Assembly: GCA_002840645.1 (NCBI GenBank)
Contig: PHBO01000010.1
Coordinates: forward strand, 60,470-124,469
Length of the DNA: 64,000 bases
Direction of reading: 5' to 3'
From: Candidatus Cloacimonetes bacterium HGW-Cloacimonetes-3
GTDB taxonomy: Bacteria > Cloacimonadota > Cloacimonadia > Cloacimonadales > Cloacimonadaceae
Below the pieces are notes generated by a model, which was not told where the DNA came from, made no database searches, and saw nothing but the letters and a program-made list of their open reading frames with translations. Position 1 is the first letter of the stretch, and each line of letters starts with the position of its first letter. The position numbers were made by a program, and so were the translations under genes. Shown here one piece after another: positions 3,201-39,600 of this stretch.

Positions 3201-3648
3201 ATTCCATACCTTTGTGCAGATGCAGAATGTGCTTGGCAAGGTTCTCGCGGGAGGGCATGTAACGCCCGAAAGAACGGATAGAGAGGCTGTAAACAGCCGG
3301 CTTGTCACTCTGCATGGCATACAGCAGGGTCTCCATGCGGGTAGCGCGAATGCTGTAATGCGGGGAGCGTTCTTCGTAGGGCAAAATCTCATAATCCGGC
3401 ATGTAGTGGGCATTCTCTTTGCCTATTAAAGCGCAGAGATCGTCCCAGATATCCTCGGCAATGATATCGTCCTGAGACACAATGATCAGGTTCTTGCCGC
3501 TATGTTGCCACAAATGCGCTGCCACAAGGGCACGAGCGCTTTGAGAGAGATGGTATAGCTGAAAAGCTTCTCCGGAAATGGGCAGAGAGATCACGCTACT
3601 CAGGAATTCTGAGCTGCTAAGAATGTCAGATAAGGTTGTGTGCAGCAT
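268..3648 (-). CDS. mfd: Transcription-repair coupling factor
   Basis: UvrB-like N-terminus, CarD/RID region (GDYVVHVDHGIG), CGDVGFGKTEVA Walker A, DEEH, TRG/TRCF C-terminus; 1126 aa. Confidence 0.97.
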   Translation of the reverse strand: MLHTTLSDILSSSEFLSSVISLPISGEAFQLYHLSQSARALVAAHLWQHSGKNLIIVSQDDIIAEDIWDDLCALIGKENAHYMPDYEILPYEERSPHYSIRATRMETLLYAMQSDKPAVYSLSIRSFGRYMPSRENLAKHILHLHKGMEYDPQKLLADLQNMGYDIEYQVSKVYQAARRGGIIDVFSPPTLSPVRIEFWGDEIIGMRQFSLATQRSIPGEVKELTVIPARELCLDDVDSGSPIIAKVRDKGFFDGIENYYALLTKDLQLFADYFPADNRLLIWNNYIYIYEEYEALMEQTLSAYLKAAKHSGKAKLPRPEALMADEQAFARLKNHSNNLYLSQSEFVLPFPTMNIRAPFEAQPAFDADLAVLGNSLLAKAEEGWRNILLFDNQSQSKRMQQSLGTGGYDTHIGVLHEGFSIQDCKLNLWTDHEIFNRYKRKRYAPRYSPGESIVDYENLKPGDYVVHVDHGIGVFEGLKIIKLDGSDVECLMLRYAGDDRVYVPTFQLTLVSKYIAEEGASPVLNKLGSAKWSATKHRATQQIELIAADIVKLYAERSARIGIAHKPDSDWQSELEESFIYEDTPDQSRASREIKDDMELAAPMERLLCGDVGFGKTEVAIRAAFKAVCSGYQVAVLAPTTLLVEQHWRVFKERLAQYPVRIGMFSRFRSPAMVTKDLVGVRSGAVDIAIGTHRLLSKDVRFNKLGLLIIDEEHRFGVRHKEKLRALQTNVDTLYMSATPIPRTMNMALAKLKEISLMQTSPKERLPIRTIITPRDMDVIKDAIRREIDRGGQVFFIHNRVQTIETVAEELRREMPKVRFGVGHAQMPEHHLEQVMDAFVGKEYQVLISTTIVENGIDIPNANTILIDRADTFGLAQLYQMRGRVGRSNRRAYAYLLIPKGTTTDAKHRLEALTQYDYLGAGFQVALRDLELRGAGTILGTKQSGVIQAIGFNYYNRILGNAIEAVESGDTSSLYEEITPAARQKVRTEIDLYFPPGFIDDDEERLRIYRRLGELNKLEDVDEFEVELLDRFGEIPEQARWLLNYFKLSQLTKKHSLLNCHVKKDKLTMEFDPKKMPPKQELLRFTSKITLPVRFDAGKNLKLIVELDPEQSYIQQFETAIEILKG

Positions 3649-3723
3649 TTTTTACCTTGCTTTGCTTTGCTCTTTCGGACTTTTATTCGGGTTTTTACCT
3701 GCGCCTTCCTTGCTTGCAAACCT

Positions 3724-3783
3724 CTATCATTGCCCACTCATTGACCACAAAGTGGGCAATGAGTGGGCAATGATAGGGCAATG
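3724..3783. repeat. Palindrome built of 11-bp units (CATTGCCC family, copy 1)
   Basis: 25-bp arms 3724-3748 / 3752-3776 with 1 mismatch; unit GGCAATGAGTG / GGCAATGATAG. Confidence 0.85.
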
Positions 3784-3906
3784 CTTTCAAGGGCGATTCC
3801 ATAAACAATATATAAAACAAACAGTTATGAGGTAAGGGGATAGTCCGGGGCGATATGGACTACAGACTTAGCTTTTCCGCCTCTTCCTCTTTTCCTCTTT
3901 TTTAAT

Positions 3907-3982
3907 CTTTTACTCTTTGTTAATATTCTCTCTGCTTTTCTCTGTATAACTCTGCTTTTCTCTGTGTTTAAAAGAAATCTAC
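3907..3982. repeat. Pyrimidine-rich dispersed repeat (CTCTGCTTTT units), copy 1; second copy at 46999-47077
   Basis: Shared CTTTTACTCTTTGTTAA ... CTCTGCTTTTCTC ... CTCTGTGTT ... AAAGAAATCTAC. Confidence 0.75.
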
Positions 3983-4133
3983 ACACCTATCACAAGCTTT
4001 ACGGCAAACCACTCAAACTAAAGAAGCCTGCCTTGTATGCTCTGTGTTATGATACAATCTTACTGTCGCAGGTTACAAACCTGCTTATACAACAGCTTAC
4101 AAAGCTATATTACAATCACTCGCGGTAAAATCA

Positions 4134-6311
4134 TTAAGGCTCGGTAGTAACAAAACTACCAACTATCTTGGCAAGCTTACCTTTAACAAATGAGATGGAA
4201 AGCACTGCGTCTGAACCCTCTCCATCCACGCTGAGCACAGTTCCCATCCCGTATTCCTTATGAAATACTTTCTGTCCGATGCGGTAATGCTTCTGGCTTT
4301 CGCGGGTGCTGCGCTGAATTTTGCTGGTTCCTCTGGGTGTGGGTGCTCTGCCGGTCTCACCACCGGGTTGATCGAAGAGCATCGGGTCAACTTCGCCGAT
4401 AAAATGGCTGGGTTTAGCAAAGTAGAAGGTGTCATAAATCCTGCGGCAGCGGGCATTACTGAGGTGAAGATGACGCTTGGCGCGGGTGATGCCCACATAA
4501 AACAGGCGGCGTTCCTCTTCGATCTCTTCGCGGCTGTCCATGCTCATGCGGTGAGGCAGCAGTTCCTCTTCCAGTCCCACGATAAACACCGCTTCGAACT
4601 CCAGTCCCTTGGCGTTGTGAAGCGTCATCAGGCGAAGAGAATCTATGCTTTCATTCACCATGTCCATATCTGTCTGTAGGGCTACGAAAGGCAGAAAGTC
4701 TGCCAGCAGCGGCTGTTTATCGTCCTCTTTCAGGCTGCGTTCGCTGAATTCACTAACGGAACTGACGAATTCTATCAGGTTCTCGGCACGGGCGATATCA
4801 CGCGGATCGCTGCTTTTGCGGTATAAAGCCACTAAGCCAAGCTCCTCCACAATTGCTTTCACCAAATCCAGCACCGGGCTCTTCAGAGCCGTCATGCGCC
4901 AGCTTTCCAACTGGGCAGCAAAGTCTGAGACACGCTTCTTAGCACTGGAATTGAGTTCGCTGATAGCATCCACGTTCTGCACGGCATTATAGATGGGTAT
5001 GCGGGTCTTGGCAGCAAAGCTGATGATACGGTTAACGCTGGTCTGCCCTATTCCGCGCGGAGGTTCGTTGATGATGCGCAGGATGCTCTCGTTATCGGCA
5101 GGATTGTTCAGACAGGCAAGGTAGCCAAGCAGGTCTTTAATCTCTTTGCGCTGGTAAAAGTGTAAGCTGCCCACGATGCTATATGGGATGCGGGCTTGCA
5201 TAAGGGCACTTTCGAACACGCGGGATTGGGCGTTGGTGCGGTATAATATTGCCATTTGCTTTAGCGGGATGCCTTGTCTGGCAAGTTCCTGCACGGCAAG
5301 GGTTACTCTTTCCGCTTCCTGATTCTCGTTTTCATAGGTTAAAAGCCTGGGCTTGTTGCCTTCGGGAAGCTCGCTCCACAGTTCCTTGGAGTGCCTGCGG
5401 CGGTTGTGTACTATCACGGCGTTTGCAAGAGCGAGGATGTTGCCGGTGCTGCGGTAGTTCTGTTCCAGACGGATGCTGCGCACAGAGGCATAATCTCGCT
5501 CGAACTCCAGGATATTGCGCAAGGTTGCACCACGGAAGCTGTATATAGCCTGGTCGTCGTCACCCACCACGCAAACACGCTGGTGTCCGCCGGCTATCTG
5601 GTGGATAATCTCAAACTGGGCTTGATTGGTATCCTGATACTCATCAATCATCACATATTGAAACTGGGCGCGGTATTTGTCCCGCACAGCGGTGTTGCTT
5701 TGGAACAGCTTGGCGGTGAAGAGCAGGATATCGTCGAAATCCATTGCCTGATTAAGGAGAAGCTGCTGCTGGTATAGCCTGTAGATGTTCAGGAAGCTGT
5801 TGAACTCCTTATCCTCGTTGGCTGCGTAGTCCTTCAAATCCTCTGGGAGCATCAGTTTATTCTTGTAGCGTCCAATGCGGCTAAGCACACGGTTTATCGG
5901 CAGCTTTTGCGCATCAAAGCCATGTTCTTTGTATATCTTTTTCAGCATGGACTTCTGCGCATCATCGTCATAAATGGAATAATTGGAGTTAAAGGGCAGA
6001 TGCGCTGTTTCAAAGCGCAGAATTCGGGAACAGAGAGAATGGAAGGTGCCCACCCAAAGGGTGCGCATGGGAATTTTAAGGAGGTTCTCAAGGCGTTCCT
6101 GAAGCTCGCGGGCGGCTTTGTTGGTGAAGGTGACCACCAGGATTTTCCAGGGTGGAACCTGCAGTTCTTTGATAAGGTAGGCAGCACGGTAAATAATAGA
6201 TTTAGTTTTGCCCGAACCCGCTCCGGCGAGTACCAGGATGGGATTCTCGGTATCAGTAACAACCTCTAACTGACGATCGTTAAGCTCCTTGCGATAGCTT
6301 GATGGTATCAT
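4134..6311 (-). CDS. pcrA: ATP-dependent DNA helicase UvrD/PcrA
   Basis: LAGAGSGKT, DEYQD, GDDDQAIYSFRGA, LEQNYRS, MTLHNAKGLEF, EERRLFYVGITRA, C-terminal Tudor-like domain. Confidence 0.95.
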   Translation of the reverse strand: MIPSSYRKELNDRQLEVVTDTENPILVLAGAGSGKTKSIIYRAAYLIKELQVPPWKILVVTFTNKAARELQERLENLLKIPMRTLWVGTFHSLCSRILRFETAHLPFNSNYSIYDDDAQKSMLKKIYKEHGFDAQKLPINRVLSRIGRYKNKLMLPEDLKDYAANEDKEFNSFLNIYRLYQQQLLLNQAMDFDDILLFTAKLFQSNTAVRDKYRAQFQYVMIDEYQDTNQAQFEIIHQIAGGHQRVCVVGDDDQAIYSFRGATLRNILEFERDYASVRSIRLEQNYRSTGNILALANAVIVHNRRRHSKELWSELPEGNKPRLLTYENENQEAERVTLAVQELARQGIPLKQMAILYRTNAQSRVFESALMQARIPYSIVGSLHFYQRKEIKDLLGYLACLNNPADNESILRIINEPPRGIGQTSVNRIISFAAKTRIPIYNAVQNVDAISELNSSAKKRVSDFAAQLESWRMTALKSPVLDLVKAIVEELGLVALYRKSSDPRDIARAENLIEFVSSVSEFSERSLKEDDKQPLLADFLPFVALQTDMDMVNESIDSLRLMTLHNAKGLEFEAVFIVGLEEELLPHRMSMDSREEIEEERRLFYVGITRAKRHLHLSNARCRRIYDTFYFAKPSHFIGEVDPMLFDQPGGETGRAPTPRGTSKIQRSTRESQKHYRIGQKVFHKEYGMGTVLSVDGEGSDAVLSISFVKGKLAKIVGSFVTTEP

Positions 6312-22469: not shown

Positions 22470-22574
22470 GCGTTCTGGCGTGCTGTCATACCGTATTTAG
22501 AGGTACTTTTACCGTACCTGATTTACAGGTGTCTCATCTACGCTTTAACACACATATTATAGCCTTACTTTCAA

Positions 22575-22746
22575 ACTTGGTGGGTAGCATAGGTGCTTAG
22601 CAATATCAGTGGTTCATAAGCTCTATGTATTCGCATCGTAAACACAATATTCAGCCTTGCTTGCAGGTCATATCCTTCCCGTAACCCTCCCGTATCGGAT
22701 ATGGGAGGGTTACGGGAAGCTTTATGGCAATAAACAGTCAAAATCA
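22575..22746 (+). repeat. ~165-bp dispersed repeat with 11-bp-unit hairpin, copy 1 (left border of adhesin island)
   Basis: Ungapped match to 40477-40641 (about 21 mismatches in 165 bp, counted by eye); hairpin arms 22675-22695 / 22699-22719. Confidence 0.9.
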
Positions 22747-22929
22747 TAATCCCTTATGGACATGTATGATACCAACCTATTCAATTGGAGATAGAACAAT
22801 ATTATCCGATTACACTAAGGCAAAAATAACTTCCACTCTCCAACCTCCACTTATCACCCATATACGAGGCAAAAACATATCCTGTGGGAGTGGTATCCTT
22901 GTAATTTACCGCAGAGGGAATTTTTCTTC

Positions 22930-23442
22930 TTGACATTAATATGGCAGTGAGGATTTTGCATTCTCGAGCTTGAGTGATTATCATAATTATCAGTTAATTT
23001 ACGGTAATTAGGGTAGTTAAGTTGTACGTGTGTAGCTTGGTTTTTTTAGCAGGCTGCATGCAGATGCATGAGAGGTTTTATGCGCAGAAAGACAGCTTTT
23101 CCAGTTGTTACCTCCTTGCTTTACCTCTTTAATGAGGCAGTGGAAAAATCCGCCTGCCTTCCCTACCACCCCTCCCTAAAGTTAGATACTCCCGCTTTAC
23201 GCAACCATAAATGCTTTTCAATCCCACTCAAAAAAGATAATGAGATATAGCGGAGGAAATATGCTTACACTCAGCAATGCCCTAATTGATATAATCGTCG
23301 CACATTATGCTTACTTGGGCATGGCTGATAATTTGCATAAGTCTTTCATAGTTTCTTATGAACATCAAGAACAATCATGGGGAGCGTTATCGATACCCAT
23401 ATATTACTAAACTAATAACCATATTTACTTCAAGGAGTAAAG
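22930..23442 (+). promoter_or_regulatory. Long conserved structured 5' region of adhesin gene A (candidate cis-regulatory RNA)
   Basis: Colinear blocks shared with 29849-30356; compensatory stems; ATAAT-CGTCGCAC-ATTAT hairpin at 23291-23308. Confidence 0.6.
23261..23410 (+). CDS. Possible 49-aa upstream ORF in leader A (MLTLSNALIDIIVAHYAY...)
   Basis: GGAGG SD 5 nt before ATG; ungapped paralog at 30174-30305; coding status doubtful. Confidence 0.25.
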   Translation: MLTLSNALIDIIVAHYAYLGMADNLHKSFIVSYEHQEQSWGALSIPIYY

Positions 23443-26400
23443 ATGAAACGAATACTACTGTTAATTGTTCTTGCCGTTGTGGCTTGCCTTGGCTTTGCCC
23501 AAGTTGCCAGCTACACATTCGGCTATTCCTCCGGTACATACTCAGAAATTACAGGTGGCACGGTTCTTGGAACCGCCACAGTTGGCGGTTCTGGAGCTAC
23601 TGCTCTGGATAACGTCACCTACTTCAACACACCAATTCCCTTCCTCTTTCCTTTTAATGGAAGGATGTATAATCAGGTTGGGATAAATTCCAACGGTTAC
23701 CTAATCTTTGGCGGATCAACTGCTTTTGGTGAATCAAGTCAGATCAGCAGTACAACTGTCGCTGAAGGTGCGGTTGTAGTTTACGGTAAAGATAACCAAG
23801 CTATTGTAGTTGATGGCAGCTTAGGCGAAATCCGCTACCAAACCCTGGACACCGCCCCCAACCGGGTTTTCGTAATCCAATGGAAGAACTTCAAAGATTA
23901 CAGCGGTGCTGCTACAGACCTTCTTAACTTCCAAATCAAACTGTATGAAGCAACCAAGGTAGTGGAGTTTGTATATGGTGCCTGTACGGTTTTAACTGCT
24001 GAATCCTGCCAAGTAGGTTTGCGTGGAACATCAAATGCAGATTTCTTTGCCCGTACTACCACCACAAATTGGGCAGCAAGCACAGCAGGTGCAGCAAACA
24101 CTTCCACAATGACAGTTTCTTCTACTGTTAAGCCTGCAAATGGTACCATTTATACCTTCACCCCTCCCGCAGCTACAGCTGTTCCCAATGTGGCAACTGT
24201 GGTTTCTCCCACAAACGCGAACCCAAGTGTGTTTGCTAATGCAACACTAAATTGGGCAGATGGCGGAGGCTGGACTAATGGTTTCAAGCTGTATTTCGGG
24301 ACAACTGACCCAGCTCCTTATGTAGGAGATTTGGGCTATGTAACCAGCTACGACCCTCCCGGGGATATGCCTTTCAGCACTCCCTATTTTTGGAAAGTAG
24401 TGCCCTATAACAGCTTTGGTGATAACATTACCGGAACTCAGTGGACATTTACTACTTCCAGTGCTCCCCTTACCGGAACTAAGACTATTGACCCTGCCGG
24501 CTCGGGAGTGAATAATTACACCACTTTCACAGCGGCGATCAACGCTCTAAACGGTGCCGGAGTTGGAACAGGTGGCGTTACCTTTAACGTTGCCGACGGC
24601 ACTTATAACGAAAGTCCGCCTGCTATTACAACCACAGGGACAGCATTAAACCAGATTATCTTCCAAGCTGCTGTTGGTGCCAATCCTGTAGTAACCCCTG
24701 CAGGTGGATCGTTGACCTTTGCCTTTAAGCTAACCGCTGCAGATTATGTAACCTTCGATAATATTGATGTTACTGGTCCTACTACCCTTATCTACGGGTA
24801 TTGGTTGGCAGCGCTTACAGCTAATGGCGCAACCAACAACACTATCAAGAACTGTACTATTACTGTGCCTTATGGTAGCAGCAGTAACTACGGTATCTAT
24901 TCTTTGGGTGTTGTCGATGGTGCAAACAGCAATAACACTTTCTTAAACAACAGTATAGTTTCTGCCTACTATGGTATCTACCTTACCGGTAGCTCTACTG
25001 CAGGTAGCGAAGCCCAGAACCTGAATATTCAGGGAAACACCATCACCGGAGCAAGAAACTATGGCATATACGTGGGTTATGGGTTAAACACCGTTATCCA
25101 GTATAACAACATCGGTTTCTTTGCCGGCGGAACTACCGCTTATTATGGCATATATGTGTTTGGCACAACCAGCACATATAACGTACACCATAATACTATC
25201 AGCGGTGGTTACACATCCAGCACGGTGTATGCCTTGTACAATTCCAGCGGTAATACTACTTTCGCCAACAACGATGTAACCAACCTATACAACACAAGCA
25301 GTTCAGGTTGGTATGGTTTCTACGCTGGTGGCGGGAACACAATCTGGAATGGCAATAATATTTATGGTATAGCTAATACCGGTACTGCTGCTGTTTATAC
25401 TGCCTATATCACAACCGGAAATCATGATTTCCTGAACAACAACCTCTATGATATAGCCACAGGTGGAACCTCCCTTTACGGTTTTTATGTAATTGGTGGA
25501 ACCACACACAACATCTATAACAACAAAGTGTATAACCTGCGCTATACCGGAGCATCCTCCGGTGTTGTTTACGCTATACACCTTGGTGGCGGAACCACAA
25601 ATAATGTTTACAACAACATGGTTTATGATCTGCGTGCTGCAAGCTCCACATCCCTTGCTACTTCACCGGCAATCAGAGCCTTCAGCATCAGTAGCGGAAC
25701 CACGAATAATGTATGGAACAACACTGTATTCCTTAATTCCGCAGGTTCCAATACTGCGTTCTCTACTGCAGCATTGTATGTGTTAACCAGTACCAGCGCT
25801 ATAGACCTGAAAAACAACATCTTTGTGAACAAGAGCACCCCCGGTGCTACAGGCAGAGTTGTTGCTTTCTGGAAAACCTCCGCAGGTGTTAGCAACCTCT
25901 CAGCCACATCCAACAAGAATATCTACTTTGCGGGTGTGACACCAGGTGCTGCCAATTTGATAGGCTACTTCAGCACTACCGCCTATCCAACACTGGATGA
26001 GTATAAAACTATGGCTGCCACCAAGGATCAAGGCTCTTATACCGAAGATGTGCCCTTTGTGAGAAACACTGATCCCTACGACATGCATATCGATACTGCC
26101 ATTACCACCCGCGTGGAAGGCAATGCCATCGTTATCGTGCCCCCGGTCAGCTTTGATATCGATAACCAAGCGCGTCATGCCTCAACCCCCGATATCGGTG
26201 CTGATGAAGGCAATTTCACAGCTCCTGCCGGCGCACCCGGCTTAGTAACTCTGCTTGCTCCTACCGATGCAGCACAAGGGATCAATCCCCTCACCGGTCA
26301 GCTTAGCTGGAGTGCCCCAGCTGTAGGTGGAGCTCCCACAGAATACTGGGTTTACGTATCCGATGACCCTGAAGAATTGTACAGCCAAGGCAACAATGTC

Positions 26401-29372: not shown

Positions 29373-29409
29373 GAACCCCCGGTGTGATTACCGGGGGTTC
29401 TTTTTTTTT
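29373..29409 (+). terminator. Intrinsic terminator of gene A
   Basis: GAACCCCCGGT / ACCGGGGGTTC stem followed by T-run. Confidence 0.9.
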
Positions 29410-29575: not shown

Positions 29576-29636
29576 TGATTTTGACTGTTTATTGCCATAA
29601 AGCTTCCCGTAACCCTCCCATATCCGATACGGGAGG
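29576..29636 (-). repeat. Inverted, truncated copy of the 165-bp repeat
   Basis: 61 bp identical to the reverse complement of 22686-22746. Confidence 0.9.
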
Positions 29637-29848: not shown

Positions 29849-30356
29849 TTGACACCATTTGGGTAACAAAGTTTTATTGTTCAGAGCTTGAAACATGAAC
29901 ACCATTTACTTATTAAGTGGACGTGTGTATAGTAGTTAACCAATGAATATCGTTATCTGGAAATAGTTGCCGGATAACGTGCAAGAGCATAAGAAGTTTT
30001 ATGAACCGACAGACAACTTACCGGGTTGTTACCTCCTTGCCAAACCTCGTTTTTGAGGCGACGGAAGAATTCGCATGTTCGCCTCATCAAATCACTTCTT
30101 TTAACCATCATGCGCTTAAGAGCGTTTCAACATCCCCCAGAAAAAACACAAAATGAGATATAGCGGAGGAAATATGCCTACACTCAGCAATGCCCAATTT
30201 GATATAATCGTCGCACATTATGCTATATGTGGCAATGCTGATTGTATGTACAAGTCCTTCACGGATCCTTCTAAACATCAAGAACAAATATGGGGAGCCT
30301 TATAGCCTCCCTTTAACCAGAAACACAAATACACATATTTACTTCAAGGAGTAAAG
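29849..30356 (+). promoter_or_regulatory. Long conserved structured 5' region of adhesin gene B
   Basis: Homologous to 22930-23442; TTGACA at 29849; hairpin motif at 30204-30221; CATATTTACTTCAAGGAGTAAAGATGAA identical to leader A. Confidence 0.6.
30174..30305 (+). CDS. Possible 43-aa upstream ORF in leader B (MPTLSNAQFDIIVAHYAI...)
   Basis: GGAGG SD; ungapped paralog of 23261-23410, but differences are mostly non-synonymous. Confidence 0.25.
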   Translation: MPTLSNAQFDIIVAHYAICGNADCMYKSFTDPSKHQEQIWGAL

Positions 30357-35590: not shown

Positions 35591-35619
35591 ACCCCCGGTG
35601 TAACAGCCGGGGGTTTTTT
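35591..35619 (+). terminator. Intrinsic terminator of gene B
   Basis: ACCCCCGG / CCGGGGGT stem then TTTTT; same stem sequence as the gene A terminator. Confidence 0.85.
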
Positions 35620-35799
35620 CGTTTTACTTATAAAAGCCCGCTTCTCCCTGCTTTCAGCCTTGTGCTATCTCTGCTGCGGTATTTTATGAGCTAAACGGAA
35701 GGGGGAAGGGGGTGATGGGGGGGGGGGCATGTGGCAGGTGGCGGTGTGAGGGCGATACCTCATCACCCCATCACCCCATCACACATGCTTGAATTACTT

Positions 35800-35848
35800 A
35801 TGCATTACGCATGAAATACGGATGCGATGCGTAATGCATGCGTAATGC
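35800..35848. repeat. Palindrome with 11-bp unit ATGCGTAATGC
   Basis: ATGCATTACGCAT (35800-35812) / ATGCGTAATGCAT (35827-35839); unit duplicated at 35827-35848. Confidence 0.75.
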
Positions 35849-36160: not shown

Positions 36161-36684
36161 TTGACATATATTAACTGCAAAGCAACATAGTATTGCATGG
36201 TGGATACACCAATGTAGTACCATACTATGCGTGTGGTATTAGCGTCGTTAGCAGAAACAGTTAAGTTATCTTAGCTTGTTTTGTTGTTTTGTATGTTTTA
36301 TATAATTGCCGGCAGATGAGCCAGAGGAAGTTACCTTGAGTTTATTGTTTTGCGTACCGTTAACTAACCCGGAAGCCTACAAGGCTGAAGCGGGTTTACT
36401 GCGTATGCAAAGCACGGCAATTACCACAACCACTAAGCTTCAAAATCAAACAGAAGTCTCTACTTACGGAAAACCTTGTGTCCAGAACTACGCACACTCT
36501 TTGCATAATAATCATCGCACATTATTACATCGTCTGTGTGCCTGCGTGAGAATGCTCCGTTTTCCATCCACCCTTAACCCTCAAAAACAAATGTGGCTAT
36601 GCCCCCATACAAATGAGGCAAAGCCTATAAACTAAACAGAATATCCTCTTCAAGAAAAACGTCTAAACAAGGAGTTTTCTTACT
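36161..36684 (+). promoter_or_regulatory. Long structured 5' region of adhesin gene C (diverged member of the leader family)
   Basis: TTGACA at 36161; TAATAAT-CATCGCAC-ATTATTA hairpin 36506-36527; TCAAAAACAAATGTGG block 74 nt downstream; large nested stem 36304-36422. Confidence 0.5.
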
Positions 36685-39600
36685 ATGAAGAAATTATTAA
36701 TACTATTATGCGTATTGGCAATAGCCGGAATGGCTTTCGCCGATGTGATCATCGGAACCGGGACATCCACCGGATACTATCCCGGGAGTACTTACTATAA
36801 CTATTACCGTTCAGCTGCGGTATTTACTGCCGCGGAATTGGCTGCCGGATCGGGTACTATTACAGCTCTGCAATGGTATTGCGGTACTGCAAATACTACT
36901 ACGCCCATCCCGTTTAAGATTTATATGAAAACCACTGCCAATGTAACTTTGGCAGCAAATACCTGGGCACTTGAATCTGCCGGTGCAACTGAAGTATTTA
37001 ATGCTTCAGTGACGGTTAATGCCACGGGTTGGTTCAATTTTGATATCACCGACACCCCTTATACTGCAGGTACTAACCTGGAGGTATTGGTTGAAACTGG
37101 AAGTGCGTCTTATGTAAGCCCCTATGTAAAGTGGAATTACACCACTACTACACCTACTTACAAGATGATAGCTACTTATGCAGACACCACTATCCCTACT
37201 TCTCTTACTACTAACTATTTACGCCCCAATATTAAATTTGTGGGCATTACTTCTACTGTATTCCCTGAACCTACAAACCATGTAACCGGTTTTGCTGCCG
37301 GCACACTGAATTACACCACAATTCAGTTAAACTGGACCGGTGCTACCGGTGCTCAGTTGCCAGGCAACTATCTGATTCAGGCAATAAAAGGTGCCGGAAC
37401 ATACGCTGCCGTAGGTGATGGTGTTCCTGTGGCAAATGATGCTGTGTGGACAGATAACAACGCCGCAACTAACGTAGCCCATGTAGTAGGTGCTAATACC
37501 TATACCTTTACAGGTTTAACGCCTAATACGGCTTATGAATTCAAAATCTGGCCTTATACCAATAGCCTGACAGCCATTAACTTCAAGACCGATGGGATAA
37601 TCCCCACTGTTAATGCCTCCACCCTTGATCCCACTGTCTCTACATACCCGTGGTTAGTGGATTTCGGTACATTAACTACAGATTGGCTACCCGCTAACTG
37701 GGCAAAATACAGTGGTGTATTGGCAAGTCCATCTGTACTTACTGCTGCCAGTGGCTCTTGGTACCAAGATGACTGGTTAAATGTAACCTCTCCTCTTAAC
37801 AAAGCTGCCAAGGTAAACATCTATGGAACAACAGCAGCAGGCAACTGGATTGTCTCACCTCCCATCGTAATGCCCGGAGCCGGCTATCAGCTGGAGTTCG
37901 ACCTTGCCTACATGGCATGGAATAGCCTCGGCACTGCTCCCGTAGCAGATGGAACCGGAGATCGCTTTGAAGTTCTTATCGGTGATGGCACAACCTGGAC
38001 ACCTGCTAATATAGTTCGTTCCTGGGATAATGCTGCAAGCCCGTATGTGCTGAATAATGTCAGCCCTGCCGGCGAACACATCACTCTCGATGTTTCCGGT
38101 GTCACCGGAACCAAATACATCGCCTTCTATATCCACAACGGTGATGTTGGTGATCGTGATAACGACTTCATGCTCGACAACGTGTTACTTCGCGAGACTC
38201 CTGCCGGAGCTCCTGATCCTGTAACATTGGGTTCTCCCGCAGCCGAAGCTACCGGCTTGGCTAAAAACGGATTCAACTTCACCTGGACACCTGCCATCAC
38301 CGGCGGCGAAGCTGATGACTTCACAATCTTCATCTCCACAGATGAATTTGATGTGTTAAGTCAGTTCAGTGCCACCACCGGCGGAACCTCCCTCAACCCT
38401 GTGGGCATGCCCTACGAAAGCGGAACATTTGCTTTCACCTATGAGCAACGCTACTACTGGCAAGTATTTGCCAATGGCGCAGGAGAGGAGATTGGCTCTG
38501 ATGTACGCTGGTTCGAAATTGAAGCCGATCCTTCAATAACTCTTCCTCACACCCAGAGCTTCGATGATCTGGCCATACCCGCAGGCTGGACACAGACCTA
38601 TTCCGGTACTGTAACTTCCAACCGTTGGACCGCATCAGCCACTACTAATGCCGGTGGCACAGCAAACGAAATGATGGAAACTTGGGCATCCGGCGTGGGT
38701 ATTACCCGCCTTATCTCTCCTCCCATCGTTACTGATGGCTATGGTAGTGTTGCAGTTAACTTCAACACCCTGTATGATGATTACGGCACTGGCGTTACTG
38801 CCAGAGTGCAGTATAGCCATGATCTCGTAACCTGGTACAACACAGGTTGGTCTGCAGTTGGTGGTGGCGGAAACGTTGGTCCCGGTAACTACACAACTCT
38901 TATCACCGGTCTCAGCGCTCCCGTAACTTACATTGCATGGGCAATGGATGGCGATCACTATCAGTTTGACTACTGGTATGTTGATAATGTTCTCCTATCT
39001 GCACCGCTTGATCATGATGTAGGTATTGTTAGCATAGATATGGCTGAAGTGGTTCCTGCTGTGGCGATGAATCCCAAAGCCACTATCATTAATAATGGTG
39101 CAAACACCGAAACCTTCAATGTTACCATGACAATCGGAGCCAACTATAGCAGCACTAAAGAAGTTACAGCTATTACGTCCGGCAACAGCACTCAGGTTGT
39201 GTTCGATGCTATCACTCCTGTTATTTTCACAGCAGAGGATGTAGACGTCACATGCCTGTTAGCTACTGATGAGAATACAGCTAATGACGCTCAAACCGGT
39301 GTTCTGGTTTGCCTTCCTTTGGATGTGCAAGCTTATGCAGATGTTGCCTATGATCCAGGTTCAGTAAATGATGGTCCCGCTACCTTCAACCTTGCAACTC
39401 CCGGAACCATTACTGACCTTACTGCTGCAACCCCATGGTCTGGTTATTTCCTTGCCGGTGCAGACTGGATGAATGGCGGCTGGTATGGTAAGCAATACGT
39501 TGATAGTGCAAGTTCACCCTTCTGGCAGATAGATGAAGTAACCGGTGACGGTACCCTTCTGGGAACCGGAACGGTTGTGATGTCCGGCTTTGCCTACGAT

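Follow-up and report, generated by a model that had tools for sequence, protein, structure and literature searches.

Among bacterial 5' leaders that carry an upstream open reading frame (uORF) and act through Rho or through alternative RNA structures, the described cases against which we compare the present locus are Salmonella mgtA (with mgtL), Salmonella mgtCBR and Escherichia coli tnaC (treated in part in PMC5314796, and otherwise general knowledge). The locus is a leader of about 475 nucleotides (nt), here called leader A, which precedes a gene for a protein of 1968 amino acids (aa) in a 64,000-nt stretch of DNA, hereafter the window, from Candidatus Cloacimonetes bacterium HGW-Cloacimonetes-3 (contig PHBO01000010.1, positions 60,470 to 124,469 of the forward strand). 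Two further leaders in the window are labelled B and C, one on another contig of the same genome D, and homologues from other genomes L0xx. As in the three known systems, a putatively translated uORF is embedded in conserved RNA structure within a long 5' leader, the composition is C-rich and G-poor, Rho is present, and downstream expression plausibly depends on ribosome occupancy of the leader. Unlike in those systems, the Cloacimonadota uORF has ~100 codons (compared with 3-30), with neither conserved sensor codons nor a conserved peptide, and it crosses a single ~100-nt hairpin with an invariant loop. Nor is there a conserved intrinsic terminator or a defined set of alternative hairpins, and the family is a multi-copy one, situated before paralogous giant genes.

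Translational coupling by the unfolding of a sequestered start, and the 'translated operators' exemplified by E. coli infC-rpmI-rplT, are taken here as a lead only. Leaders A and B resemble these systems in that the stop of their first frame (ORF1) falls 1-10 nt before a Shine-Dalgarno (SD) sequence and AUG that are paired in a conserved helix; by analogy with infC-rpmI-rplT, a conserved and probably factor-binding RNA structure lies within a predicted translated region. The coupled frames are, unlike those of infC-rpmI-rplT, non-conserved leader frames, no binding protein is known, and most members of the family have one continuous uORF and no coupling site. With SecM-secA, MifM-yidC2 and VemP-secDF2 the leader shares an upstream frame of ~100 codons before a secretion-related gene, and local structure at the downstream start. 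It differs from them in having no conserved C-terminal arrest motif and a near-neutral peptide, and in that neither an N-terminal signal nor a membrane segment is seen in the listed uORF peptides; with ~51 nt between uORF stop and main AUG, the SD hairpin there would lie clear of a stalled ribosome, and the downstream genes encode cargo rather than secretion machinery.

Leader A contains three SD sequences, which we number SD1 (first uORF), SD2 (second uORF) and SD3 (giant gene). Pairing of SD-like with anti-SD-like tracts, namely SD2 with UCUUUC in helix H1 and SD3 in a local hairpin, recalls ROSE and fourU elements and translational riboswitch platforms; unlike in these, the H1 helix is conserved rather than the SD, the SD3 hairpin is ordinary and no multi-helix ligand pocket is apparent. 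The trpL and hisL attenuators differ from the leader in that its uORF has a median length of 98 codons, no terminator-like site is found between positions 22500 and 23600, and its competing stems are not conserved.

A leader RNA family ahead of giant secreted-protein genes

The leader is a conserved and previously undescribed RNA family, lying ahead of very large secreted surface-protein genes in one family of the Cloacimonadota. In the host genome, a 2.68-Mb Cloacimonadota metagenome-assembled genome (MAG), the proteins encoded downstream of leaders A, B and C (1968, 1730 and 1221 aa, respectively) have signal peptides together with fn3, CARDB, Ig-like and Cleaved_Adhesin domains, and leader D is found ahead of a gene for 1956 aa. 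Leaders A and B share 73% identity over ~390 nt, leader C being far more diverged. Genome searches of same-genus MAGs provided eight close homologous leaders, and the A-type set referred to throughout comprises nine leaders, A and B included; a metagenome pattern scan with an invariant block of these leaders found two loci only, one of them a duplicate.

A covariance model derived from the nine-sequence A-type alignment (R1) gave 19 weak matches in other genera. Eighteen of these lie 67-145 nt upstream of a long ORF starting MKK.. and continuing with a hydrophobic stretch (signal peptide), and the nineteenth likewise precedes an MKK.. ORF once its start is placed. A second model (R2), made from the distant R1 matches only and including neither A nor B, recovers A, B, C and D in the host genome with E values of 5e-21, 1e-19, 9e-12 and 5e-10. 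Its ~120 matches are distributed over 51 of the 203 genomes of the order, 50 of the 51 belonging to a single family; eight genera are represented, and a genome has 1-10 copies, frequently arranged in tandem. The downstream MKK.. start is clear in 73 of the 85 leaders that have the loop motif (89 were gathered), and all of the ~80 copies inspected precede a large signal-peptide protein. Covarying structure, fixed position and orientation and a coherent set of downstream genes, as seen generically in structured cis-regulatory leaders, are all present.

Two kinds of match were set aside. A candidate fifth copy in the host genome (C21:55608-55728, E = 0.07) lies in coding sequence, has no loop motif and is a false positive, while matches of the model to the reverse strand at the same loci (E = 1e-7 to 1e-3) reflect the symmetry of the hairpin and were taken out of the alignments. 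Nowhere in the window was an Rfam 15 family matched at gathering thresholds; at E <= 10 the region 22900-23470 yielded only two far-sub-threshold matches, to snoR114 (16 bits against 45) and, on the other strand, to STnc540 (15.5 bits against 38). A literature search for a described Cloacimonas leader or RNA motif returned nothing relevant.

Domain II

Domain II, a large covarying hairpin overlooked in a preliminary description of positions 23104-23442 (the middle and 3' part of leader A), is a genuine conserved RNA structure. Its minimum free energy (MFE) in leader A is -31.5 kcal/mol (z = -3.28) and not one of 200 shuffles was as stable; the whole leader is also more structured than its own shuffles (z = -2.79). 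Across the nine A-type leaders, which align nearly gap-free in the region of the second uORF (ORF2), the hairpin consists of H1 GGAGGA/UCCUUC, H2 UAUGC/GCAUA, H3 UCAGC/GCUGA, H4 GCC(C)/(G)GGC and the apical AUAAU-CRUCGCAC-AUUAU. In a model-independent alignment of these nine sequences 83.5% of the cells are paired, compared with 33-41% when the partners are slid, and compensatory change is seen at seven pairs. Helix H3 illustrates the variation, occurring as UCAGC/GUUGA, CCAGC/GCUGG, CCGG/CCGG and CUCAAU/AUUGAG. Over 87 distinct sequences 81% of cells are paired (35-44% with slid partners) and compensatory changes occur in 26 of 29 pairs, with a covariation score of 0.557 as against 0.08-0.12; the counts are somewhat inflated by the fitting of the alignment to the model.

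In other subfamilies H1 adopts sequences that are not SD-like, such as GGUUU/AAACC, GAAACC/GGUUUC, CGAAGC/GCUUCG and GGAAUC/GAUUCC, and it is therefore the helix that is conserved, not the SD. The apical hairpin is the most conserved element of the family. Pairing of its loop with GUGCG of a hairpin labelled P3 was considered and dropped, a match being present in only four of nine sequences. Pairing of the loop with rRNA was likewise set aside, the MAG having no recognisable 16S gene. The complement of the loop, GTGCGATG, occurs 43 times in the genome where ~82 occurrences are expected, a comparison that is uninformative.

An open frame with a drifting peptide

Two SD-led open frames in leader A likewise went unmentioned in the preliminary description (Table 1). 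The first, uORF1, stays open for ~50 codons in all nine A-type leaders, with indels that shift its frame relative to the conserved nucleotide motifs; the second, uORF2, runs through Domain II and is also open in all nine. The position of SD1 and its ATG is kept in most distant homologues too, the weakest SD1 of the A-type leaders being that of leader B (AAGAAG). The distant homologues have a single ORF, with SD and ATG ~100-190 nt upstream of the loop, that continues without interruption through Domain II.

Statistics of the uORF, including the median length quoted above, were drawn from 63 leaders with unambiguous features. An SD-like 4-mer is present at -16 to -4 of the first ATG in 43 of them, and the distance from uORF stop to main AUG has a median of 51 nt (interquartile range 46-61.5), the stop occasionally overlapping the main ATG. 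Translated through the loop, 28 leaders would give IIIAHY and 35 NNHRTL; the third frame, which has a UAA within AUAAUC, is never used. Between the first ATG and the main gene, 27 leaders contain 56 stops in the uORF frame, compared with 146 and 167 in the other two.

Judged from its substitution pattern, the uORF peptide evolves near-neutrally while the frame stays open. Between related pairs of leaders, substitutions at the three codon positions number 143:138:150 in the uORF and 128:84:275 in the first 150 codons of the downstream gene, and the ratio of non-synonymous to synonymous substitution (dN/dS) is 0.54-1.36 for the former compared with 0.09-0.36 for the latter. The A-type ORF2 peptides align well (M.TLS.A..IIIAHY..SFTVS..HQ); for this frame alone the median dN/dS is 0.83 and the codon-position differences are 407:393:444. 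Depending on the leader, the motif CAUCAAGAACAA in the linker 3' of Domain II falls in any of three frames. No codon run of the kind found in leader-peptide attenuators is visible in the listed uORF peptides, and no C-terminal arrest sequence like those of SecM, MifM or VemP is conserved, the C-termini differing among subfamilies and the codon-position profile being flat. Since the frame is kept open though its peptide is not conserved, the simplest reading of these comparisons is that selection would act on the passage of ribosomes rather than on a protein.

The split frame and its junction

In the A-type leaders the two frames meet at the invariant block AAUGAGAUAUAGCGGAGGAAAUAUG, within a region in which GAGATATAGCGGAGGA is invariant in all nine sequences. 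Of the three frames that enter the block, one meets a UGA and another a UAG, while the last is in phase with the AUG of ORF2. Six of the nine uORF1 frames end at the UAG and two (leader B and L012) at the UGA, while in L010 the frame is fused to ORF2. At the junction of leader A, UAG (23248-23250), GGAGGA (23252-23257) and AUG (23261) follow one another closely; the corresponding positions in leader B are UGA 30154-30156, GGAGGA 30165-30170 and AUG 30174. This proximity is found in all eight split A-type leaders, with the stop 1-10 nt upstream of SD2. Both SD2 and its AUG lie at the foot of Domain II, where they supply the 5' sides of helices H1 and H2 (4.6 expected base pairs between SD2 and UCUUUC in the ensemble of leader A), that is, the downstream start is occluded by a covarying structure. 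The arrangement has the classical geometry of termination-reinitiation coupling, and we infer that ribosomes would open H1 and H2.

The leader of the gene C orthologue of another species, L014 (CAYSGM010000012.1, reverse complement of 3500-4400), was compared with window positions 36161-36685. It has an intact A-type Domain I, split uORFs, the invariant block and an insertion of ~110 nt after Domain II. In leader C itself Domain I is degenerate and the open frame starts with no convincing SD; this leader may be decaying or differently regulated.

Ribosome transit as the proposed point of control

Taken as a whole, the explanation that we favour, namely a conserved leader RNA with a uORF through which ribosome transit controls the giant gene, has in our estimate a probability of about 0.5. 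Its descriptive part, comprising the structure, the open frame, the junction in A and B and the fixed position before large secreted proteins, is very probably correct. The more specific mechanism, which combines transit with Rho and a gate, is tentative. Under it, ribosomes starting at SD1 would have to traverse the leader; in leaders A and B, termination at UAG or UGA would open the base of Domain II, whereupon ORF2 would re-initiate by termination-reinitiation coupling. Transit would both shield the C-rich, G-poor leader from Rho and deliver ribosomes to within ~50 nt of the main start. Domain II, by way of its invariant loop, would be the likely checkpoint, at which a trans-acting factor could stabilise the hairpin and halt transit, and gating at this point would co-regulate several paralogous giant genes. 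The competition between local stems in A and B, described below, would be a lineage-specific detail rather than the core switch.

A step further, and a little more speculative again, is the possibility that Domain II is a 'translated operator', the CRUCGCAC loop binding a trans-acting protein or RNA that gates transit and so switches a giant-gene regulon of 1-10 members per genome. The loop is proposed as the site of such a factor because it is conserved in sequence and not only in shape. As regards Rho, its gene is present in the genome (107.6 bits), and the leaders have C fractions of 0.23-0.25 and G fractions of 0.15-0.18, compared with 0.22 for both bases in the downstream gene.

Several observations weigh against this explanation. 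Translation of the uORF and the start of transcription are both argued from conservation, and about a quarter of the leaders have no clear ATG-plus-SD start for the open frame. Family-wide, the uORF SD is occluded to the same degree as the SDs of ordinary genes (0.40 compared with 0.40), which therefore gives no evidence for regulated uORF initiation; systematic sequestration of this SD was accordingly rejected for the family, though folding predicts it in A-type leaders. The excess of C over G is modest, and neither a rut (Rho utilisation) site nor a Rho-dependent terminator is callable from the sequence. Across a gap of ~51 nt a terminating ribosome would not reach far enough to melt the SD3 hairpin directly, and that hairpin is not unusually stable. 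Finally, no candidate binding partner was found for the invariant loop, and the inflation of the 87-sequence pairing counts, mentioned above, must be borne in mind.

Alternative explanations

The alternative that survives best, which we nevertheless consider unlikely, is that the leader is mainly an element of mRNA stability or processing serving surface proteins of very high expression, with Domain II a substrate of RNase III or another nuclease, or a protective 5' structure, and the frame secondary. Genes for S-layer and outer-membrane proteins are known to have long stabilising 5' untranslated regions. Domain II forms a duplex that is long, almost unbroken and of conserved shape, in a leader that exceeds its shuffles in structure, and each giant gene has its own transcription unit with a strong terminator. 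Left unexplained are a ~100-codon frame that is stop-free in exactly the two frames permitted by the loop, the invariant stop/SD/AUG block of the split variants, and a loop that is invariant in sequence rather than in shape.

Less likely again is a lineage-specific local switch that governs uORF1 initiation in A and B, with pairing of SD1 to CCUC plus an extended hairpin Pb as one state and hairpin Pa, freeing SD1, as the other. The two local stems themselves were recognised in the preliminary description: GAGG (23134-23137 in A, 30055-30058 in B) can indeed pair upstream with CCTC (23124-23127, across a 6-nt loop) to form Pa, or downstream as GAGGCAG (23134-23140) with CTGCCTT (23154-23160) in A. 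Pa shows compensatory changes in two of five pairs (CCUC/GAGG to GCUC/GAGC), with G-C and A-U variants also seen, and RNAalifold pairs SD1 with the CCUCC block that lies within uORF1. In the full-length ensemble of leader A, SD1 pairs with the second CCUC (6.7 expected base pairs) and GAGG with CUGCCUU, or segment 4 (6.8), and Pa can be imposed at a cost of only 3.8 kcal/mol (A), 2.3 (B) or 1.8 (L011). The two stems thus compete, as claimed for A and B, in these three leaders (free-energy differences of 1.8-3.8 kcal/mol); in the other six of the nine the cost is 0-0.9 kcal/mol and there is no conflict. Pa forms part of the MFE structure of these six or comes within 1 kcal/mol of it, and is out-competed in the MFE structure of leader A.

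The claim that the downstream stem keeps its pairing in different sequences holds for the comparison of A with B (TGAGGCGA/TCGCCTCA in the latter), in shifted columns, but not for the nine homologues, where 52% of cells pair as against 42-59% with slid partners. It is the inner GGA/UCC part of Pb that recurs in homologues, the outer part, corresponding to the proposed alternative stem, not being conserved. SD1 remains paired in A even when Pa is forced (11 nt in both states), the SD1 of B is weak, and SD1 is not unusually occluded in the family at large. The competition between Pa and Pb is real but lineage-specific, and in A it proceeds without freeing SD1.

The hairpin previously noted around SD3 (TTTACT 23424-23429 with AGTAAA 23436-23441) is present, but its stability is ordinary. 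Being invariant in A-type leaders, it offers no covariation; over windows from -36 to +6, 400 control gene starts from this genome average -4.7 kcal/mol and giant-gene starts -4.6 kcal/mol (p = 0.22). Its candidacy as a special occluding structure was rejected on this comparison.

Highly improbable is the mechanism originally put forward for leader A, in which the CCUCC block at 23108-23118 (TTACCTCCTTG) pairs over ~320 nt with the SD of the giant gene (CAAGGAGTAA, 23431-23440, ATG at 23443) and represses it, with the local stems bringing release. The sequences are as described: the surrounding 16-mer GTTGTTACCTCCTTGC is identical in A and B, a related element, TTACCTTG, is found in leader C at 36331-36338, and 10 base pairs with one bulge can be formed in both A and B. 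Seven complementary bases are kept in L009, L015 and L013, a C-to-U change in the SD flank of the last retaining a G-U pair, and the ensemble of L009 reaches 2.25 expected base pairs between block and SD3. L009 is, however, alone in this among the eight leaders with the block, the expected value being 0.000 in A, 0.054 in B and no more than 0.014 in the five others at equilibrium. The RNAduplex energies of the SD3 window against the upstream leader (-12.1 kcal/mol in A, -11.0 in B) are matched by dinucleotide shuffles (-12.3 +/- 2.0 and -11.5 +/- 1.9), which equal or better the real duplex in a fraction of 0.49 of cases in A, 0.58 in B and 0.10-0.89 in the others; with 300 shuffles each, none of the nine leaders reaches p < 0.09. 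The pairing is thus at chance level, and by-eye complementarity between anti-SD and SD is expected by chance in a C/U-rich leader of 500 nt.

Nor is the block consistently conserved. It has one mismatch in L014, is degenerate in L010 and L011, which keep 4-5 complementary bases, is absent in L012 and is missing from distant homologues that otherwise share the features of the leader, while the different SD of L014 comes with no compensating change, the match there likewise being down to 4-5 nt. It lies, moreover, inside a putatively translated frame, and half of it is taken by hairpin P0: the 16-mer is the 3' arm of P0 (the GUUGUU half) plus a C/U-rich tract inside uORF1. P0 recurs with varied arms (ACAAC/GUUGU, GCAACC/GGUUGU, GAACCA/UGGUUC, AAGCAAC/GUUGCUU, ACAACG/CGUUGU and GAUGGCA/UGCUGUU). 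Should CCUCC pair with any SD, folding favours that of the uORF, 35-45 nt upstream, or SD2 in leader B. A closing helix GUUGUUA:UAAUAAC with CCUCC:SD2, obtained on folding 23104-23442 alone, was discarded as an artefact of cutting off the P0 5' arm and SD1; UAAUAAC is not at the matching position in B, and the GUUGUUA:UAAUAAC helix is absent from the fold of the full-length leader. Long-range pairing that is not populated in folding was the outcome named at the outset as refuting the proposal, which is close to refuted. What survives of the suggested conformational control of initiation is the general link between RNA conformation and initiation, not the specific anti-SD mechanism: two of the three SD/AUG sites belong to conserved structures, and selection probably acts on the passage of ribosomes along the leader.

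Just as improbable is the reading of the uORFs as genes for small proteins with a function of their own, such as chaperones or partners of the giant ones, with RNA conservation incidental. In its favour, the frames are long and SD-led and keep their position, and the A-type ORF2 peptides align well. Against it, dN/dS is ~0.6-0.9 with equal substitution at the three codon positions, the most conserved nucleotides are read as two different peptides and the linker motif in three frames, and compensatory changes track RNA pairing, not codons.

Features of the leaders and their genomic setting

Table 1. Features of leaders A, B and C, in window coordinates.
Feature	Position	Strand	Basis or remark
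Conserved -35-like hexamer TTGACA, opening leader A	22933-22938	+	Invariant in 9/9 A-type leaders
SD1 GAGAGG (23070-23075) and uORF1 AUG (23080-23082)	23070-23082	+	SD-like purine run and ATG in nine A-type leaders
uORF1, leader A	23080-23250	+	56 codons, ending at UAG
Hairpin P0, GACAGCU/AGUUGUU	23091-23109	+	In every A-type MFE fold
Block GTTGTTACCTCCTTGC, proposed distal anti-SD, within uORF1	23104-23119	+	Identical at 30025-30040 in leader B
Hairpin Pa, CCUC-UUUAAU-GAGG	23124-23137	+	88.9% of cells paired in nine sequences
Hairpin Pb, leader A, GAGGCAGUGGA-AAAA-UCCGCCUGCCUU	23134-23160	+	Overlaps 3' arm of Pa; 6.8 expected base pairs
Invariant block AAUGAGAUAUAGCGGAGGAAAUAUG, holding SD2 GGAGGA	23239-23263	+	Junction of uORF1 and uORF2
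Domain II, long imperfect hairpin (~100 nt), leader A	23252-23347	+	Covariation and folding
Domain II helices, leader A			H1 GGAGGA/UCUUUC, H2 UAUGC/GCAUA, H3 UCAGC/GCUGA, H4 UGCCC/GGGCA, and apical stem
uORF2, leader A	23261-23410	+	49 codons; UAA 23408-23410; SD GGAGGA 23252-23257
Apical hairpin AUAAU-CGUCGCAC-AUUAU	23291-23308	+	Near-invariant in 87 sequences, eight genera
C/A-rich linker CAUCAAGAACAA after Domain II	23363-23374	+	Family-wide as CAUCAARAnCAA or CUUCAAAAUCAA
Hairpin P5, AUGGG ... CCCAU	23377-23400	+	Hairpin here in nearly all homologues
SD3 AAGGAG (23432-23437) and AUG (23443) of the 1968-aa gene, hairpin CAU-UUUACU/AGUAAA-AUG	23420-23445	+	4.0 expected base pairs, TTTACT with SD3
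Leader B frames	uORF1 30001-30156; uORF2 30174-30305; giant-gene ATG 30357	+	
Domain II, leader B	30147-30287	+	R1 154 bits; R2 101.5 bits (E = 1.4e-19)
Leader C frame	open 36306-36635; giant-gene ATG 36685	+	109-codon open stretch, loop read as NNHRTL
Domain II, leader C, single-uORF type	36450-36590	+	R2 67.9 bits (E = 8.6e-12)

The hexamer that opens leader A has equivalents at 29849 in leader B and 36161 in leader C, and in A-type leaders it is followed ~35 nt downstream by a conserved GAGCTTGA. A simple consensus scan called no full sigma-70 promoter at the hexamer of leader A; the start of transcription would be placed from its conservation. At the other end of the leader, the stems of P5 are unrelated in sequence among homologues (for instance AGAGGAGA/UCUCCUCU, UGGAGAAU/AUUCUCCA and GAGAGCCGG/CCGGCUCU), the hairpins of Domain I and P5 having been judged from nine sequences or by eye. 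In L029, L030, L034, L036, L037 and L041, P5 (GAGAGCCGG...CCGGCUCU) shows GGAGGAGGAUAA near its tip, ~20-70 nt after Domain II. The uORF stop falls inside GGAGGAGGAUAA in L041, L034 and L037, giving an SD-like tract just before the stop and ~60 nt upstream of the main AUG.

A strong intrinsic terminator closes each giant gene, which is thus its own transcription unit. G+C-rich hairpins (CCCCCGG...CCGGGGG) followed by T-runs lie at 29376-29409 and 35592-35619, directly 3' of giant genes A and B. Every giant gene accordingly looks monocistronic and would have a promoter, a leader and a terminator of its own. The genes nearby (a phosphonate ATP-binding cassette transporter, an Rnf complex, radical S-adenosylmethionine enzymes, an amidase and a histidine kinase fragment) are unrelated housekeeping genes, with no obvious regulator among them. 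No recognisable 16S rRNA gene was found in the MAG by way of the universal primer sites.

Tandem arrays of leader plus giant gene are seen elsewhere in the family, with 10 copies in genome G100 (e.g. C93:60938, 70314 and 94454) and, in G066, four copies ~4-6 kb apart (C1:15233-29762) with a fifth at 73308. The N-terminal domains of the downstream proteins are of several unrelated types (EYSF..GTYTEITGG, ADVVIGTGTS, AGV..A), so that what the leader accompanies is a regulon, not a single protein family.

Several repeats accompany these genes. A palindromic element, CCC(A/G)TAACCCTCCCGTATCGGATATGGGAGGGTTA(T/C)GGGAA, flanks the adhesin island of the window (22675-22719 and 29576-29636) and recurs at C28:273340-273385 of the genome, ~270 nt upstream of the promoter of leader D. 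Between the terminator of gene B and leader C, positions 35700-35790 hold a G-run (GGGGGGGGGGC) and then CATCACCCCATCACCCCATCAC repeats, and similar runs of the heptamer CACTTCATCAC are found upstream of the promoter of L013. The 16-mer ACGGATGCGATGCGTA (35818-35833), which forms part of a ATGCGTAATGC palindrome 5' of leader C, occurs at 20 places in the genome as a dispersed repeat, and a different species has a near-identical element ahead of the L010 promoter. At 7 of 8 bases the repeat agrees with the complement of the Domain II loop, a likeness that is probably coincidental because the element is upstream of only one of 85 leaders; a link between the leaders and this upstream palindrome (the GGATGCGATGCG element) was rejected on the same count and on its dispersed occurrence.

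Significance

The Cloacimonadota are abundant uncultured syntrophs of anaerobic digesters, and their gene regulation is almost unknown. The leader RNA is new, well supported and restricted to one family, and is best classed among uORF-containing regulatory leaders. In each genome it singles out 1-10 giant cell-surface proteins as a putative co-regulated set, and it supplies a sequence handle for finding them. The arrangement is unusual in that selection holds a long upstream frame open even as the encoded peptide drifts, and the uORF has to cross a strongly conserved hairpin in one or other of the two frames free of the built-in UAA; in one lineage it is cut in two, the parts being re-joined at a block able to catch each of the three frames. 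Should the control point indeed prove to be transit through a structured, factor-binding uORF, this would be a new type of bacterial leader regulation, and a translated operator of this kind would constitute a new class of ribosome-gated leader specific to the Cloacimonadota.

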